This document shows positions 866 to 8,587 of a DNA stretch of 64,000 nucleotides, in pieces. Source of the stretch: Myxococcota bacterium (lineage in GTDB: Bacteria > Myxococcota_A > UBA9160 > SZUA-336); contig CBDFGR010000002.1 of assembly GCA_965247115.1 (NCBI GenBank), forward strand, positions 1,056,001 to 1,120,000, read 5' to 3'. The notes beneath the pieces are model-generated. The model worked only from the letters and a program-made list of their open reading frames with translations, had not been told where the DNA came from and searched no databases. Within the stretch, counting starts at the first letter, position 1. Each line of letters opens with the position of its first letter. The position numbers were made by a program, and so were the translations under genes.

Positions 866-902
866 GCGACCTGCCCCGGGTACGAGACCCGGGGCGGGTC
901 GC
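866..902. terminator. GC-rich hairpin between convergent groEL and histone genes, likely terminator
   Basis: GCGACCTGCCCCGGGT-acgag-ACCCGGGGCGGGTCGC, a 16-bp stem with one G-U pair; no U tract. Confidence 0.55.
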
Positions 903-929
903 CTGGCTCCTGGCAATCCTCGGACGGGC

Positions 930-1145
930 TCAGCCCCCGAGGAGTTCCTTTGCCTTCTGGATGTCGCCATCCATGATTGTCTTGCGCCGGTCTTTTTCGG
1001 CCAGCGCACCGGCCTCTTGAGCAAGGCGTGCGATGTACTCCTCCGCTGCGGCAACCGCAAGATTGACCGCGGAGGTCGACGAGCGCAGCTCGCCACCGTG
1101 CTTGGCTAGAAGACGTTTGACTCCAGCCGCTGGAAGTTCGGCCAT
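930..1145 (-). CDS. Histone-fold protein, archaeal HMf-like single histone (71 aa)
   Basis: MAELP start, R11, R21, EE in helix 2, RKTIxxxDI loop2/helix 3 motif; purine-rich RBS (GGAGTGAGAGGGGG) upstream. Confidence 0.88.
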   Translation of the reverse strand: MAELPAAGVKRLLAKHGGELRSSTSAVNLAVAAAEEYIARLAQEAGALAEKDRRKTIMDGDIQKAKELLGG

Positions 1146-1224
1146 GTGCCCCCTCTCACTCCCCCTGGATGCGGGTGTTTGTTGGCCCTAGCATTCCCCA
1201 GGCGGACCTGACGCGTCAACTCTC

Positions 1225-1315
1225 CTTGTGGGGCCCGCCCGCGGGCGGCCGCGGGCACCCACCTTCGCTCAGGGCTACGCCCTTCGCTGCGCGCGCCGCG
1301 GTCCGCGGCGCTTGC
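1225..1315. repeat. Multi-hairpin palindromic repeat element, copy 1 (intergenic)
   Basis: Near-identical to 6994-7085; three internal hairpins; bounded by CTTG(T/C). Confidence 0.85.
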
Positions 1316-1398
1316 GGTTGCCAAGACCCGAGCGTCGGGTCCCAACGGTCGGTCTCAGCGGGGAGGGACTTCGCTCAAGGAGGCTCGCCCCTCCGGGA

Positions 1399-2175
1399 CT
1401 AGGGGTCCGTCTGCAGGAGGGGCTCGTGCGCTGTTTCCAGGCGGGTTATGAACTCCACCACCTCTGCGGCGACCAGCTCCCCCTCCCGATCTACAGGGAT
1501 CACGTGGCTCGAATTTTCGAGCACGCGGAGCTCCCGCTCTTCCGAGGACACTCCGGCCAGCACCTGCTCGGAGTTGGAAAGGGCTACCGAGGGATCCTGA
1601 CGGCTGTAGATCAGCTTGAGTGGTTGATCCACCCGGGCCAGATCCCGAGCCACCTCCCCTCCCAGCAGGACGAGCTGGTGCACAGCGTCGAGGGGCATGC
1701 GCTCGTAGCCAGGGTGGCGCTCCCGGGCCGCTCGGTCCAGGATGCCTGGCCGCCTGGGCACCCAGGGCAGAACCCGGCGCAGGATCGGCAGCGCGGTCCG
1801 GATCAGCCCCGAGAGCTCGAGAGGGGCCGCCATGACGATCGCCCCGGCGACCGCTCGCCGGGCCGCGAGAGCCAGCGCCAGCAGGCCTCCCATCGAGAGC
1901 CCCAGTACGTAGACCCGCTCGTGTGTGCTCGCGAGCTCGTCCCAGGTCTCGAGGCTGGCTTCGAGCCAGGCGCTGCGGTGCGTGCGCGCGAGCTCCCCGG
2001 GATCCGTGCCATGGCCCGGCAGCAACGGACCCAGACACGCGAAGCCGCGAGTCGCGAGCGCCTCGGCCGGTGGGCGGACCTCGTACGGTGTGCCGGTCAG
2101 GCCGTGCAGGCAGAGCACGGCCGGCCCGCGGCCGCCAAGCGCACCAAACCGAAACGGGCCAGCGTCGACCATCAC
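1399..2175 (-). CDS. Carboxylesterase, alpha/beta hydrolase
   Basis: LHGLTG oxyanion segment, GLSMG nucleophile elbow, D and H near the C-terminus. Confidence 0.88.
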   Translation of the reverse strand: MMVDAGPFRFGALGGRGPAVLCLHGLTGTPYEVRPPAEALATRGFACLGPLLPGHGTDPGELARTHRSAWLEASLETWDELASTHERVYVLGLSMGGLLALALAARRAVAGAIVMAAPLELSGLIRTALPILRRVLPWVPRRPGILDRAARERHPGYERMPLDAVHQLVLLGGEVARDLARVDQPLKLIYSRQDPSVALSNSEQVLAGVSSEERELRVLENSSHVIPVDREGELVAAEVVEFITRLETAHEPLLQTDP

Positions 2176-3449
2176 GCGCTCTCCACTTCGGCCGTCCGCT
2201 CGGCCTCGCGGTAGACCTCCTCGATCGGCACGCTGTGCTTGCGAGCGGCCCGCGCACAGTCCTCGTACTCCGCCGCCGCCGTGGCGGCCCCGCCCGGCGA
2301 GCTCGCGAGCTTCACCCGGATCCGACCGAACCGTGTCGCCACGCTGCGGGACTCGCGGGCCAGCTTCAGGCGCGGCATCTCGATGTAGCGCACGCCGATC
2401 GCACTGGACTCGAGCAGGATGCGTCGGGCGAGGGCGTCTCGATCACCCGGTCGAGCAATGACACGAAGCAGCTGGCCGGGCCGACCCTTCTTCATCGCGA
2501 GCGGTGACAGCGAGACGTCGAGAGCCCCATCCGCCAGCAGGCGCTCCATCAGGTAGGGCAGCTGCTCGGGATTCATGTCGTCCAGGTTGGTCTCGATCAC
2601 GCTGACGACATCGCGCTCGAGCGCCCCACTCACCTCGCCCAGCACCGCACGCACCACGTTCGGGAGCGGGCCTGGCCGGCGCTGTCCCGCCCCGAAGCCC
2701 TGGCCCCGAGGCACGAGAGCCGGCATGAGCCCGAAGTCGTCGCACAGCGCGGCCAGCAGCGCCGCTCCTGTCGGCGTAACGGTCTCCCACTCGACGTCGT
2801 AGGGGTACGTCGGGATCCCAATCAAGAGCTCGAGCGTGGCGGGCGCAGGCAGAGGGAGTCGGCCGTGCTCGGTCTCGACCTGTCCGCGACCGAGGGCCAC
2901 GGGCGAGCACGACAGCCGGTCCACGCCGAGGTGCTCGAGTGCGGCACAGACGCCGACGATGTCTCCGATCGCGTCCACGGCCCCCACCTCGTGAAAGTGG
3001 ACCTCGTCCGCCGCGATCGCGTGGACCTTGGCCTCCGCTTCCGCGAGCCGGCCGAAGACCCGTAGACTGCGCTCGCGAACGCGCGGCGCGAGCGCAGCTC
3101 CCGCGAGCAGGGAGCGGATCTCCGCCCAGCGCCTCTCCCGCGCGCTGCGGGCGGGCCCTCGGAAGCTGACCCAGCGTGCACCCAGTGCACCCCTCGTAAC
3201 GCGCGAGACCCGCATCGTGACGCCGCCGATCCCGAGAGACCGAACCGCGGCGCGCACGCCCCGGGCGGGAGCACCGAGATCGAGCAGCGCACCGAGGATC
3301 ATGTTGCCCGCTGCTCCGGAGAAACAGTCCAGGTGCAGAACCCTGGCAGGCTCGGACTTCGCGGCAGGCCTGCGCCCGTCGCTGCCGCGCTTGCGCCCGC
3401 TACTGGTTGATGAGCGAGGCGACGTAGGCCGCGCCGAATCCGTTGTCAA
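2172..3449 (-). CDS. larC: Nickel pincer cofactor biosynthesis protein LarC (start uncertain)
   Basis: DCFSGAAGNM, VHFHEVGAVDAIGDIVG, TPTGAA, IETNLDDMNPE, MKKGRPG and EYEDC motifs. Confidence 0.93.
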   Translation of the reverse strand: MTTDSARPTSPRSSTSSGRKRGSDGRRPAAKSEPARVLHLDCFSGAAGNMILGALLDLGAPARGVRAAVRSLGIGGVTMRVSRVTRGALGARWVSFRGPARSARERRWAEIRSLLAGAALAPRVRERSLRVFGRLAEAEAKVHAIAADEVHFHEVGAVDAIGDIVGVCAALEHLGVDRLSCSPVALGRGQVETEHGRLPLPAPATLELLIGIPTYPYDVEWETVTPTGAALLAALCDDFGLMPALVPRGQGFGAGQRRPGPLPNVVRAVLGEVSGALERDVVSVIETNLDDMNPEQLPYLMERLLADGALDVSLSPLAMKKGRPGQLLRVIARPGDRDALARRILLESSAIGVRYIEMPRLKLARESRSVATRFGRIRVKLASSPGGAATAAAEYEDCARAARKHSVPIEEVYREAERTAEVESA

Positions 3450-4146
3450 TGTTCACCACCGTCACGTTGGAGGCACACGAGTTCAGCATCCCGAGCAACG
3501 CAGTAACCCCGCCGAAAGACGCGCCGTACCCCACGCTGGTCGGGACGGCAATCACCGGCCGTCCGACGAGCCCCCCGATGACCGAGGGCAGGGCCCCCTC
3601 CATTCCCGCGATGGCGATCACGACCTGCGCCGAGCGGATCTGGTCGAGGTACGGGAGCAGCCGGTGCAGCCCGGCCACGCCCACGTCGTAGATGCGTTCG
3701 ACCTTGTTTCCGAACAGCTCGGCGGTCACCACGGCCTCCTCGGCAACCCGTTGATCCGAGGTCCCGGCGCTCACCACGACGATCGTCCCGCGTCCCGGGG
3801 GAGGCCCAGGTCCCTGCCGCAGCACAAGGACGTTGGCCGCGGAGTAATGCGTGAGCTGCGGAAGTCCGAGACGCACCTCGGTCGCGACCTCGGCTTCGAC
3901 GCGCGTGACGAGGACGTTGCCACCGGCCTCGATCAGCGTTTGCGCGATGCGAACGATCTGATCCGCGCTCTTGCCCAGTCCGAGCACGACCTCCGGGTAC
4001 CCGCTGCGCAGGGCCCGGTGCGTGTCGACACGCGCGTCTTCCAGCTGGCGGAAGGGCAGCTGAGCGAGCTGCTCGAGCACCTGATCGCGGGAGAGCTCGC
4101 CCCGCTCCAGGCGTTCCAGCAGGGCATGGAGTCGATCTCGATCCAT
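3400..4146 (-). CDS. larB: Nickel pincer cofactor biosynthesis protein LarB
   Basis: DTHRALRSGYPEVV, AGTSD, DVGVAGLHRL, AGMEGALPSV, PTSVGYG and VNIDNGFGAA motifs. Confidence 0.95.
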   Translation of the reverse strand: MDRDRLHALLERLERGELSRDQVLEQLAQLPFRQLEDARVDTHRALRSGYPEVVLGLGKSADQIVRIAQTLIEAGGNVLVTRVEAEVATEVRLGLPQLTHYSAANVLVLRQGPGPPPGRGTIVVVSAGTSDQRVAEEAVVTAELFGNKVERIYDVGVAGLHRLLPYLDQIRSAQVVIAIAGMEGALPSVIGGLVGRPVIAVPTSVGYGASFGGVTALLGMLNSCASNVTVVNIDNGFGAAYVASLINQ

Positions 4147-4173
4147 GCCCGGAGGATACCGCTTCGCCGCTTG

Positions 4174-4721
4174 TTACGGCTCTCGCGGCACCCAGAGGAA
4201 GCGGATGCGTAGGGGACCGTCCCGCTCGATCAGCTCCGTCTCGTACACGATGCCCGTCTCGAAGCCACCGACGCACGCATCTTCGAGCGGCATGGCTCCG
4301 CTCCCCTCGTGATAGGCCAGGCGCGGGACGGAAGGCAGAACGAGGCCTCCCTCCAGCATGCTGAAGGCTCCGGCCGCTGCCGAGATGGCGATGTTTCCGA
4401 GCTCCCGGAGCGCCGACTGCTCGCGCTCGTTGAAGGGAGCATCCGCGCAGGAGCCGATCAGGCAGGACAGCAGATGGTCCGATGCCTCGAAGGACAGGAG
4501 CAGGCCCGCCTGGCCGACCAGCGCGCCGTGGAGGTCGGAGAACACCGCCACGACGCGGTCCTCCGCCGGGAACAGGCTCGAGAACGCCTCGCCCTTCTTG
4601 ATCTTCCTGCAACGGGGGGCGCCATGAGCAGGGTCCGATCGAGGAGGACGGAGAGCGCATTCGCGGCATGCCCCGCTCCGATACTCGTCAGCTCAGCTAG
4701 TCGATCCTCGTTGTGGTTCAT
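4174..4721 (-). pseudogene. cheC: CheC-family phosphatase (DifG-like), split by a 1-nt frameshift at a C6 run
   Basis: N-part ELTSIGAGHAANALS (ORF 4458..4721) and C-part SALRELGNIAISA (ORF 4174..4551); one extra C at 4614-4619 restores MAPPRCRKIKKG. Confidence 0.8.
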
Positions 4722-6336
4722 ACGAAGCTCTCCACCAAAGACCCGGGTTCGAGCAAGAACACAGGCTGTCCATCGGGAAGGATGGCAACGCCTCCGAGCG
4801 CCTTGATACCCGCGAGGAGTGCGGGAACCTCGCGCACGAAGATTTCTAGATCCGAGACCGCGCGGTCGATCAGCAGGCCGAAGCCGAAGCCTCGCGTCTC
4901 GAAGACGAGCACGTTCGCGCTCGCTCGCGTGGGCGAGGGTCCGAGACCGATGTGCTCGGAAAGGTCGAGCAGGGGCAGCGGCTCGTCCTTGAAGACGAAG
5001 AAGGCATCAATGCCGTCGCGCTCGACCTGCGCCTCGGCCACGCTGAGCACCGACTGGAGCTGCCCGACCGGAACGACCACGCGCTCTGTCCCCACCTCGA
5101 GCACAAGCACGCGCTGCAGGGCGACCATGGTGGGAAGCTCGATCTCTGCGATCGTTCCGGCACCGGGGCGATTCACGAGCGTGACAGACCCACCGAGGCT
5201 CTCGAGGCCGCGCTTGACCGCGTCCATGCCGACGCCGCGGCCCGAGACCTCCGTAACCTCGTCGCGGGTGGAGATGCCCGGCTCGAAGATCAGCTCGCAG
5301 ATCCGCTCGGCGGGCAGGTCCTCCGCGACCATCTCGGCGACCAGCCCGCGCTCGACGGCGCGCTGCCGAACCTTCTCCAGATCGATGCCTCTGCCGTCCT
5401 CTTCGACGCGAACGTAGAGCCGTCCCGAGGACTGGGCGGCCGATAGGCGGATGGTCCCCACGGGGTCCTTTCCCACGCGTTCCCGCTCTTCGGGGGTCTC
5501 GATGCCGTGGTCCACGGAGTTCCTGACCAGGTGAAGGAGCGGCTCGTCCAGGTGATCGAGGATGGCGCGGTCCACCTCGACCTCTTCGCCGACGAGCTCG
5601 ACGCGGACGCGCTTGCCAAGCGCTCTGGCGAGGTCGTTGGCGGTGCGCGGGATCCGCTGCAGGACACGCCGCACGGAGGTGGTACGGATGTCGAGCGCCC
5701 TGCGCCGCAGCTCACGGACTACGTGTTCCATGCCGTCGAGCTCTTCGCAGAACTCTCTGTGCAGCTCCCAGACGGGAGCGTCGCGGTGGAGGGCTTCGAG
5801 GCGGGCCTGGCGCTGCATCAGCTCGCCCACCGAAGCCAGGAAGCGGTCAACAACCTCGGTCCGTACGCGGACCGATCGCGGGAGCGGAGGCGCCGATAGG
5901 TCCGTGCTTTTTTTCCGGAGTCCTCCGGGAGCGGGCACATGGGCGCAAGCGACGGCGGCTGGGCCAGCAGCTCGACCAGATCGGCGCGGGGCGGTGGCGC
6001 CTCTCCAGTGGCGTCGACCGCCGCCACCATCTGCTCGAGCCCGTGGAGGACCTTCGAGATCAGCGCGAGGGCGGAGTCATCGGGCTGGCCCCCACTCCCC
6101 CGCAGTGGCTCCATCCAGTCCTCGTAGCGATGGGAGAGCGAGGAGACGGAAGCGTAGTCGAGCGACGCAGCCATCCCCTTGATCGAGTGCGCCATGCGGA
6201 AGAGCGTATCGATCGCCTCGTCCGCTGCCTGGCGGGACGGGCCGCCCTCGAGCGCAGTCAGGGCTCCCGACATCTCGATCAAGTGATCGTTTGCCTCTTC
6301 GACGAACAGGCGTCTGTACTTCTCGAGGTCCATCAA
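4718..6336 (-). CDS. cheA: CheA histidine kinase (DifE-like), encoded in two frames joined by a -1 shift at A7 (5908-5914)
   Basis: Hpt domain LFRMAHSIKGMAA in 5818..6336; dimerisation, HATPase (HLVRNSVDHG, EDGRG, GRGVGMDAV) and CheW-like domains in 4718..5938. Confidence 0.92.
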
Positions 6337-6339
6337 CCT

Positions 6340-6717
6340 CTATCCTTCTCGAGACTTCTCCATTGCCTTCCCGACGACCTCGAGCACCTTGTCCGGCTTG
6401 AACGGCTTGACGATGAAGTCACGAGCGCCGGCCTCAAGCGCGTCCATGACCAGGGTCTCCTGGCCCAGGGCGCTACACATGACGATGCAGGCACTCGGGC
6501 TCATGCCCATGATCTCCTTCAACGCCTCCAGCCCGCTCTTGCGTGGCATCACGATGTCGAGCATCACGAGATCCGGCGTGTGCTCTTGGAAGAGCTCGAT
6601 GGCTTCGTTTCCGTCGATTGCTTCGGCCGCAATCTCGAAGCCGCCCTCCGTCAGGATGTCGCGCAACATCTCCCGCATGAAAGCGGCGTCGTCCGCGATC
6701 AGAACGCGCTTAAGCAT
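6340..6717 (-). CDS. cheY: CheY-like response regulator (DifD-like)
   Basis: IADD, LDIVMP, CSA and KPF receiver motifs; single domain. Confidence 0.93.
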   Translation of the reverse strand: MLKRVLIADDAAFMREMLRDILTEGGFEIAAEAIDGNEAIELFQEHTPDLVMLDIVMPRKSGLEALKEIMGMSPSACIVMCSALGQETLVMDALEAGARDFIVKPFKPDKVLEVVGKAMEKSREG

Positions 6718-7289
6718 GACTCCTGTCCTCCCTGATGAGCGCGCGACTGTGTCAGCAGCGCTGTCGCACGCTCGAGAAACCCGTCTAGATCCACGAGACC
6801 CAGCGTCCCGTTGGCCCGATGTACTTCCCGCACGAACGGGTACTCCTCGTTCACGTTCTCTTCTCTCCCCGTCCAGACCGCGCGGTCGCGATCAATCCGA
6901 GACACGTGCCCCACGCGGAGCCCAATCCTCGAGTCGCCGTGTTCCAACAGCAGAACATGGCTGTAGTGCAATCCCGCGTGACCCGGCGCCTGTCTTGCGG
7001 GTCCCGGCCCGCGGGCGGCCGCGGGCGACCCGCCTTCGCTCAGGCCTTCGGCCTTCGCTGCGCGCGCCGCTTCCGCGGCGCTTGCTTCTTGCGCCGGCTC
7101 CAGCCCGAATACGGCCCCGCCGTTCATCACGACGAGCGGCTCGCCTCGGATGTTCAGGACGCCTCCGACGTTGGGCGGCACGAGCGGGATCAGGCGGGGC
7201 TGTTGCGCCCACATCACCTCGGCGACCGCGTCCAGGGGAATCGCGAAGGATCGCTCCCCGAGATCGAACTGCAGCCAGGATGTCGCCAC
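6699..7289 (-). CDS. cheW: CheW coupling protein (DifC-like) with a 29-aa repeat-derived insertion
   Basis: FAIPLDAVAEV, IPLVPPNVGGVLNIRGE and IGLRV motifs. Confidence 0.88.
   Translation of the reverse strand: MATSWLQFDLGERSFAIPLDAVAEVMWAQQPRLIPLVPPNVGGVLNIRGEPLVVMNGGAVFGLEPAQEASAAEAARAAKAEGLSEGGSPAAARGPGPARQAPGHAGLHYSHVLLLEHGDSRIGLRVGHVSRIDRDRAVWTGREENVNEEYPFVREVHRANGTLGLVDLDGFLERATALLTQSRAHQGGQESCLSAF
6994..7085. repeat. Multi-hairpin palindromic repeat element, copy 2, in-frame inside cheW
   Basis: Matches 1225-1315; CTTGC direct repeats 87 bp apart. Confidence 0.85.
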
Positions 7290-7303
7290 TATCGTGTTGC
7301 CTT

Positions 7304-8587
7304 TCAGCGCGTGCGAAAGCGCAGCGCGACCTCGTTCAGCTCGTTTGACATGCTCGACAGGCGCGCTGCCTGTCGGACCATTTCGTCCATCGCCGCGCGC
7401 TGACCGCTGAGCCCGCCACGCATCTCGTCTGCGGCCTTGGCTCCGTTCGTCACCTCTTGCGAGATGCTCTCGATGTCGCGTACCAGGTGCTCGCCGTCAC
7501 TCGACTGGCGGGTGGCCTGGTCGAAGATGTCGTCGGCCCTGCGCGAGGCCTTCTCGATCGAGGCCTGCACCTGCTCGAGCGCTTGCAGGATCTCAGCCAG
7601 GTCGCTGCGGCGCTCGCTCACGTCCTCGCCCATGGAATGGGTGATGGCTGAGACGTTCGAGGAGCCTTCCTCCAGCTGGCGAATCAGCGTCTCGATCTGG
7701 CCCGCCGAGTCGCCCGCAGTCTCGGCGAGCTTGCGGATCTCGTCCGCCACCACGGAGAAGCCGCGCCCCGCGTCGCCCGCACGGGCCGCCTCGATCGAGG
7801 CGTTCAGCGACAACAGGTGGGTTTTCTCGACGACGCTCGAGATCATCTCGGTAACACGGTGGGCGGACTGGATCTTCTGCTCGAAGTCCTGCATCAAGCG
7901 CTCGGACTCTTCGATCTTCTCGAACAAGCTGCTCATCTTCGTGGCCGAGTTTCGCGACACCTCCACGCACGACGTCGTCTGCTCGCTGGCGTCGCTCGTC
8001 AGGCTCGACGCCTCGCTCGCAGCCTCGGCGTTCTCCTGCATTGCCGAGGAGATCTCGCGCATCCGCAGGGAGATGTGCTTGACATCCTCCTGCTCCTTGA
8101 GCGTGCTCTGCGCCACCGACTCCATGTTGTGGGAGATCTCCTGGCTCGCCCCGTTCACTTGCCGCGACGACTCCGAGAGGTCGAGCGAAGCCTGGGCAAC
8201 CTCGTCGGCGGCTCGCTGCAGGCGTTCGACGAGCTCCCGCAAGCTCTCGAGCATGGCCGCGACGGAGCGCGCAAGATCGACCGTCTCGTCGGGAAAGCGG
8301 CGTCCGCCGCGGGGGGAGAGCTCCGTCGTCAGGTCACCGCTGCTGATGCTCTCGGTGCAGTTGCGGAGCCAGCCGAGGTTCCTGGTGATCTGTCTCGAGT
8401 AGAGCGATCCGATTCCCGTGCCGACTCCGAGTGCGGCGAAGAAGGAGCCCCACGCAGGTACACCCGACGCCTCGAGAACGGCGGGCAGTCCCGCGGCTAC
8501 CGCCGCAACCACGACGAAGCCCAGCACGAACTTGTGCGAAAGATCCAGGCGCAAAGCGGACTCTCGATGCGCAACTCCAGCGCGCAA
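7304..8587 (-). CDS. Methyl-accepting chemotaxis protein lacking a periplasmic sensor domain (DifA-like)
   Basis: Two adjacent hydrophobic helices, HAMP ([10 protein letters not shown]), signalling hairpin [32 protein letters not shown]. Confidence 0.93.

Follow-up and report, generated by a model that had tools for sequence, protein, structure and literature searches.

The window, a stretch of 64,000 nucleotides from the genome of an uncultured Myxococcota bacterium (5.17 Mb, referred to as G000, with G001 and G002 for two congeneric genomes), contains on the minus strand at 4174..8587 a che cluster coding for an MCP, CheW, CheY, CheA and a CheC-like ORF, the last being called by eye, without a Pfam hit. 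This is the same set of components as in the Dif pathway of Myxococcus xanthus (PMC4671073), the likeness being one of components alone. The cheW gene (6699..7289, minus strand) is an open frame of 196 codons with a PF01584 match (E 8.6e-15), and its predicted product has 196 aa against 156 aa in G001. It codes for the only stand-alone CheW found in the genome, the other of the 2 CheW-domain matches being located in CheA.

Within cheW lies a 92-bp repeat core (6994..7085, plus strand) bounded by CTTGY...CTTGC, the minus-strand reading of which corresponds to CheW residues 69-99. The presence of an element at this position, announced in the preliminary description, was confirmed, together with the in-frame peptide ASAAEAARAAKAEGLSEGGSPAAARGPGP, which represents residues 69-97. 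On the left, the core adjoins a partial restart of the element's own left end with a short spacer (6970..6993, plus strand), encoding approximately residues 100-107 and absent from G001 and G002; base 6979 of this restart is the family-like G in 4/4 runs. On the right it continues into an extension or filler (7086..7100, plus strand, with an inferred exact boundary) that resembles the GGTTGCC-type tail of the family and varies in length among G000, G002 and other strains. The net insertion relative to the empty site is 120 bp (40 aa), consisting of the core, the left-end partial restart and about 12-15 bp past the right end, and preservation of the frame has to be reckoned from these 40 codons instead of the 87 bp, or 29 codons, from which it had originally been argued. 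The intergenic copy used for comparison (1225..1315, plus strand) is situated between a groEL-like gene and a convergent alpha/beta hydrolase gene. It is indeed related, but at 89% identity (83/93 columns) it should be called similar and not nearly identical; likewise, the pentamer spacings of 87 bp (CTTGC at 6994 and 7081) and 86 bp (1225 and 1311) were correct, although the left pentamer of the intergenic copy reads CTTGT instead of CTTGC.

Of 41 genomes, 36 gave a CheW match, and 30 loci were aligned. The site is empty in G001 (156 aa), and the insert has 30 aa in G002 and 40 aa in G000, the remaining 27 aligned loci, two of which are partial, being without it. Loci that lack the DNA repeat also lack the peptide, which among the 29 others was found in G002 only. 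Loop insertions at two of the loci (L021 and L024) were considered as relatives of the repeat and rejected, their extensions being unrelated and without the repeat. It was also considered that the CTTGC pentamers might represent a target duplication; since tandem arrays hold both pentamers side by side and empty sites show loss of target bases, they are the element's own ends. Misassembly of the cheW copy could be rejected as well: in run X1, which may be the source sample, three overlapping contigs span the two junctions with 0 differences, run X4, from another study, covers the left junction with four differences, and G002 has its insert at the same site. The insertion in cheW is real.

The series of conspecific strains comprised eight runs from eight studies, out of 24 listed, and among these eight no clean empty cheW site was found. 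Run X6 extends to the left restart. A remnant allele of net -75 bp, equivalent to +15 aa in frame, was recovered in three runs of three studies (X8, X9 and X11), whose contigs across the site are 14.4, 9.4 and 4.5 kb long. X5 bridges the site with net -73 bp and is apparently frameshifted (contig depth 5.7). A second contig of X4, with 30 letters on its short side, deletes 6910-7123 (net -213 bp), by which core CheW strands are removed; the contigs of X7 end at 6909 and 7124, and this run was left out of the count. The 15-aa remnant, the apparent frameshift and the 213-bp deletion together indicate that the cheW site is unstable and, as far as the assembled sequences tell, the last two show that tolerance of the insert is not universal. 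Nevertheless, the lengths of 0, 15, 30 and 40 aa form a series of natural alleles at a single CheW loop, open to direct assay.

The element belongs to a large family. With a profile built from 115 full-length copies, nhmmer returned 196 hits in the genome, 162 of them near full length, and 0 hits in the reversed-genome control, therefore the repeat is not a product of chance. Full copies, nearly all of 86-94 bp and without coding capacity of their own, have direct ends and three hairpins, namely a bulged long hairpin 1 (outer stem GYGGG...CCCRC), a short hairpin 2 and hairpin 3. The fold z-scores of the cheW copy were -3.2 and -3.5, those of the intergenic copy at 1225-1315 were -1.9 and -3.1. 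In the four helices 97.4% of the cells were paired in 29 distinct copies and 10/26 pairs were changed on both sides; pairing reached this level in 0/500 shuffles, and slid controls were paired at 33-53%, where it has to be considered that the structure was derived from the same sequences and that kin share changes. Of 136 copies, the outer pair was T-A in 109, C-G in 21 and C-A in 6. The left end is sharp and is preceded by partial restarts in 48/135 intergenic copies, whereas the right end is ragged, many copies running on into a linker and a separate accessory module with GGGGACGG-type inverted repeats, an element of its own that the cheW copy does not have. DNA matches were obtained in 34/61 genomes including G000 (22/31 in the family and 11/29 elsewhere in the class), and relatives of the repeat were found within this class only among the genomes searched; of 49 GTDB pattern hits, the 18 that the HMM did not match were discarded as chance.

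According to our own Markov gene caller, 173 of the 196 hits fall between genes, 10 run over a gene end and 13 lie within genes. Eight of the latter make up six convincing in-frame insertions, and five are at termini or in doubtful ORFs. The left end is within 7 nt of an upstream stop codon in 65/83 cases and the right end in 2/83, a polarity that is partly definitional, since the extension modules inflate the right-end distances; the left end is as close to a start codon in 1/52. By comparison with empty sites, the stop codon adjoining the copies is ancestral. Dimers, head-to-tail arrays and convergent pairs also occur in the family.

In-frame copies in otherwise unrelated conserved genes with empty orthologues were found, besides cheW, in purD, dnaE2, imuB, addA and at the lpxI-Gfo junction. 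In purD (L041:1221-2795; G000:C2:1553720-1555294) three tandem in-frame copies and a partial one add 96 aa between the ATP-grasp and C domains, an insert absent from 4/4 aligned relatives. Three of the six internal coding insertions are gathered in a 13-kb DNA-repair region with addA-like, dnaE2 and imuB genes (L042, G000:C3:1783348-1796305; also L052, L140 and L141): the dnaE2 insert is present in G000 and G002 and absent from G001, which has two paralogues, and from G014; the AddA-like helicase has the insert in G000 and a mere remnant in G002; imuB received at least three independent insertions across the genus, one in opposite orientation. In G000 the minus strand of the element is the one read in each of the six internal coding insertions, and the GCGGG/CCCGC subtype accounts for 5/6 of them versus 23/149 other copies (Fisher p 7e-4, the copies being non-independent).

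The sixth case is a gene fusion within the lipid A gene cluster lpxA-lpxI-gfo-lpxB (L040:1273-3210, G000:C2:1436772-1438709; L058). The lpxI gene and gfo, the latter coding for a Gfo/Idh/MocA dehydrogenase which we take from its context to be GnnA-like, are separate in 28/30 matched genomes and form one frame in 2/30, namely G000 and G002, where the repeat stands in place of the GTGA stop/start overlap of G001. The net lengths of 154 and 157 bp differ between the two genomes, and both restore the frame. A single lpxI-gfo frame in G045 was rejected, as it belongs to an indel-ridden assembly with a stop and is without the element. The comparison shows cleanly, before and after, how a repeat has deleted a stop/start overlap and fused two conserved genes. 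A full-text search yielded no prior case of this kind, which is weak evidence of novelty.

The five coding comparisons of empty and filled sites (cheW, purD, dnaE2, addA and lpxI-gfo) showed target loss, from a few to about 15 bp, and no duplication, while 12 intergenic pairs were mostly too diverged for junction calls. Restart units within genes differ between G000 and G002 by multiples of 3. Among 83 distinct G001/G002 copies, which are part of the sets of these genomes, 45 are at sites filled in G000 (a number inflated by tandem neighbours), 36 at sites where the profile found nothing and 2 at the edge of a locus. In 21 clean orthologous filled pairs the partner was the best match among 157 copies in 0/21 cases and among the top five in 5/21; the mean identity of the pairs was 88.6% versus 86.4% for random copies, and their junctions differ. 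In the cheW cores of G000 and G002 the main difference is a compensatory switch between two common hairpin-1 subtypes, and the core region has a dS of 0.04 versus 0.31 in the flanks. Since orthologous partners are not best matches, junctions differ, the cheW subtype is switched and the core dS is low, resident copies were likely replaced or converted and not simply inherited, and the comparison suggests that copies at shared sites are overwritten in place.

The account that we favour, as probable though by no means certain, is that the cheW copy is a near-neutral passenger belonging to a 196-copy three-hairpin repeat, which is spread by nick- or break-primed copying from a fixed left end. A putative structure-recognising nuclease would cut a new target or a resident copy, and the free 3' end would anneal by microhomology to the left end of another copy and copy it. 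Copying would often abort and restart at the left end, and the far junction would be closed through microhomology joining, by which resident copies could be overwritten, extended, truncated or deleted in place. Selection would then retain only those events that leave stop codons and ribosome-binding regions untouched or, in genes, keep the frame within a tolerant loop or linker. As no enzyme was found, the cut-and-copy steps are deduced solely from the anatomy of the junctions. Gene conversion together with replication slippage at the hairpins could give part of the same pattern, and the alternatives considered below are not all mutually exclusive.

The family could be of the REP/BIME type and owe its mobility to a RAYT/Y1 HUH transposase, through single-strand peel-and-paste next to a CNNGY motif. 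GTGG/GCGG at the foot of the hairpin, the lack of target duplication, head-to-tail arrays, convergent pairs and stop-codon adjacency fit this possibility. Such traits, as well as dimers, compensatory stem subfamilies and intragenic REPs giving in-frame inserts of 20-30+ aa with enrichment in DNA repair genes (dnaE2, uvrD and recB, with UvrD/RecB-type helicases), have been reported for REPs (Di Nocera 2013, PMC3733652), and this repair-gene bias is echoed by the addA-like, dnaE2 and imuB insertions. However, REPs are units of 20-40 bp with an unpaired GTAG/GTRG tag and a RAYT gene flanked by REPs (PMC3733652), whereas in the Myxococcota repeat the tag at the hairpin foot is paired, GYGGG covarying with CCCRC, the unit has 92 bp and three hairpins, and the core lies on the flanks of 0/8 Y1 loci in G000 and G002. 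A search for the HUH/Y1 partner proposed in the preliminary description gave none that tracks the repeat: Y1_Tnp was detected in 9/32 family genomes and in 0/12 of genus g10, where the repeat is present in 11/12, many of these being fragmented MAGs. The core was not hit in the Y1 loci L142-L162 of other family genomes either, where fragmented MAGs could hide one. There is one frameshifted Y1/RAYT-like gene in G000 (L031:1005-1990; C3:2177077-2178062), lying between inverted repeats of about 30 bp that are GGGGWSAS-like and belong to the accessory module, not to the core; in this respect the module, present to the right of many intergenic copies, is similar to TIRtrons/TIRYT with their GGGGWSAS inverted repeats (PMC3733652). 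Altogether we consider mobilisation by a RAYT rather unlikely, with perhaps a minor chance of being correct.

Searches for Y1_Tnp, GIY-YIG and RVT_1 in 32 family genomes revealed no mobilising enzyme that tracks the repeat, and no recurrent mobile gene family was found among 272 genes beside copies; since most genomes are fragmented, this is to be read as not found in those searched. GIY-YIG was almost always a single-copy, long frame, UvrC-like by inference, with one extra hit in G013, and a motif regex in G000 gave 0 sites, a weak negative, as the UvrC-like gene was missed too. The largest multicopy gene family of G000 is a transposase, presumably IS5-like, with about 28 near-identical sites (e.g. 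C3:1246904-1247983) and CTAG-type targets; two of its copies are placed in the right extension of the repeat, at most about 200 bp away from it. Another family, which we assume to be DUF222-like, does not have the core at its flanks. Five further, mutually similar Y1/RAYT-like genes (L033 and L035-L038) have a GGRRxGAGRKP N-terminus, the repeat not flanking them, and a non-coding derivative of the element with the frameshifted Y1 gene, of about 150-170 bp, is common and often joined to the right of the 92-bp core.

It is also conceivable, at about the same modest level as the RAYT alternative, that the repeat is self-rewriting: an enzyme unrelated to RAYT, RT or GIY-YIG would re-cut resident copies and re-synthesise them from others with telomerase-like restarts, and this could even be the damage repair of the host. 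The host damage-repair machinery is a possibility here because of the repeated independent insertions in imuB, dnaE2 and addA. If this reading were true, copies would be ratcheted to stop codons, loops varied between strains and multidomain proteins built, as in LpxI::Gfo/Idh/MocA. The junction signatures, i.e. the fixed stuttering end, the target deletion and the overwriting in place, constrain the mechanism.

A SINE-like retroposon, whose structured RNA would be reverse-transcribed at a nick, leaving one end fixed and stuttering and the other truncated, is very doubtful. The fixed left end with restarts, a triple 9-mer among them, and the variable right end give a polarity that resembles target-primed reverse transcription. 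Retrotransposition of msd-derived repeats has been proposed in the myxobacterium Nannocystis (cited in PMC6868368). However, no cognate reverse transcriptase co-occurs with the repeat, RVT_1 being present in 4/32 family genomes, in none of the G002 sequence and in G000 as one truncated intron-type RT with no copy nearby; G-U pairs show no strand bias (176/4677 vs 197/4741), and an Rfam scan of 900-7400 gave 0 matches at E<=1.

Returning to the passenger character of the cheW copy, the CheW flanks have a dN/dS of 0.11 for G000-G002 and 0.16-0.17 versus G001, by which measure they are under purifying selection. In an AlphaFold2 model (27-row alignment) the CheW core has pLDDT >90 and the insert 48-75, the latter being modelled as a low-confidence helix (65-82) and disorder. 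The two-subdomain CheW fold is retained according to the PF01584 hit and the predicted model, which matches the solved CheW 2ch4_W (E 2.6e-8, TM 0.82 of target), and in E. coli CheW the equivalent of the insertion site is the loop formed by approximately residues 76-86. The structural mapping advised in the preliminary description places the insert in a variable loop with the predicted fold intact, and the insert is likely a surface loop, as predicted by the model, tolerated as a near-neutral passenger.

We find it hard to believe that the insert is adaptive, either as a new CheW loop or as an mRNA hairpin tuning the Dif-like pathway. The insert at the same site in two species at a synonymous divergence of 0.31, and the length variants retaining the CheW core, all of which but one are in frame, would agree with such a role. 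Against it, the peptide varies both in length (40, 30 and 15 aa) and in sequence, the inserted core has dN above dS between G000 and G002 (6 vs 1 changes), the insert is absent from 28 other CheW loci, and three quarters of the element is lost in strains of three studies, which argues against a role of mRNA structure in particular. Decay of cheW, i.e. an insertion tolerated since the gene no longer matters, is equally improbable: frameshift-like and 213-bp deletion alleles occur in 2/8 runs, but the flanks are constrained as described above, this CheW has no stand-alone substitute and its neighbouring genes are intact, and equivalent in-frame inserts are present in purD and the lipid A cluster.

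Palindromic inserts that keep the reading frame are in themselves well known. The preliminary description had likened the element to the Rickettsia palindromic elements (RPEs), and a mobile repeat family inserted in frame and adding a protein loop in their manner is supported. RPEs are long stem-loops of 105-146 bp with terminal inverted repeats, and almost half of the copies are situated in ORFs (Ogata 2000, 2002, via PMC10969869 and PMC2229807). Like these, the Myxococcota repeat is a non-coding palindromic sequence of about 100 bp, both intergenic and in frame in unrelated conserved genes, with no known dedicated enzyme and an apparently tolerated insert. Unlike these, it is not a single long stem-loop with terminal inverted repeats but a unit of 92 bp in which three hairpins are enclosed by direct CTTGY ends; about 8/196 hits are gene-internal, it is read in different frames, its left end stutters and it has produced a two-gene fusion. 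MITEs (Correia, ERIC, RUP) are also small, non-autonomous and structured, and ERIC-type ORF fusions have been described (PMC2229807); the Myxococcota repeat shares the first three properties but is GC-rich and without terminal inverted repeats, TA ends or target duplication. New here are the series of cheW alleles, the test for overwriting, the insertions in repair genes and the lpxI::gfo fusion. In two reviews that deal with such repeats (PMC2229807, PMC10969869), the questions of how RPE-like repeats move and whether the protein inserts matter are treated as open, and the cheW locus bears on both through its alleles and junctions.

One further feature of the cluster concerns cheA. Its reading frame shifts by -1 at a run of seven A (A7; 5908-5914, minus strand) in the linker between the Hpt and dimerisation domains, and the gene is thereby split. 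An earlier report of a cheA frameshift was not found in the literature searched, PMC3711429 included. A -1 shift at the same place with an A7-A10 run is present in 8/13 scorable cheA loci from three genera (21 given, 8 unscorable), whereas the five continuous cheA genes have no A run. Judged by this sequence pattern, the A run likely mediates programmed frameshifting or transcriptional slippage, which would yield a free Hpt protein in addition to the full CheA.
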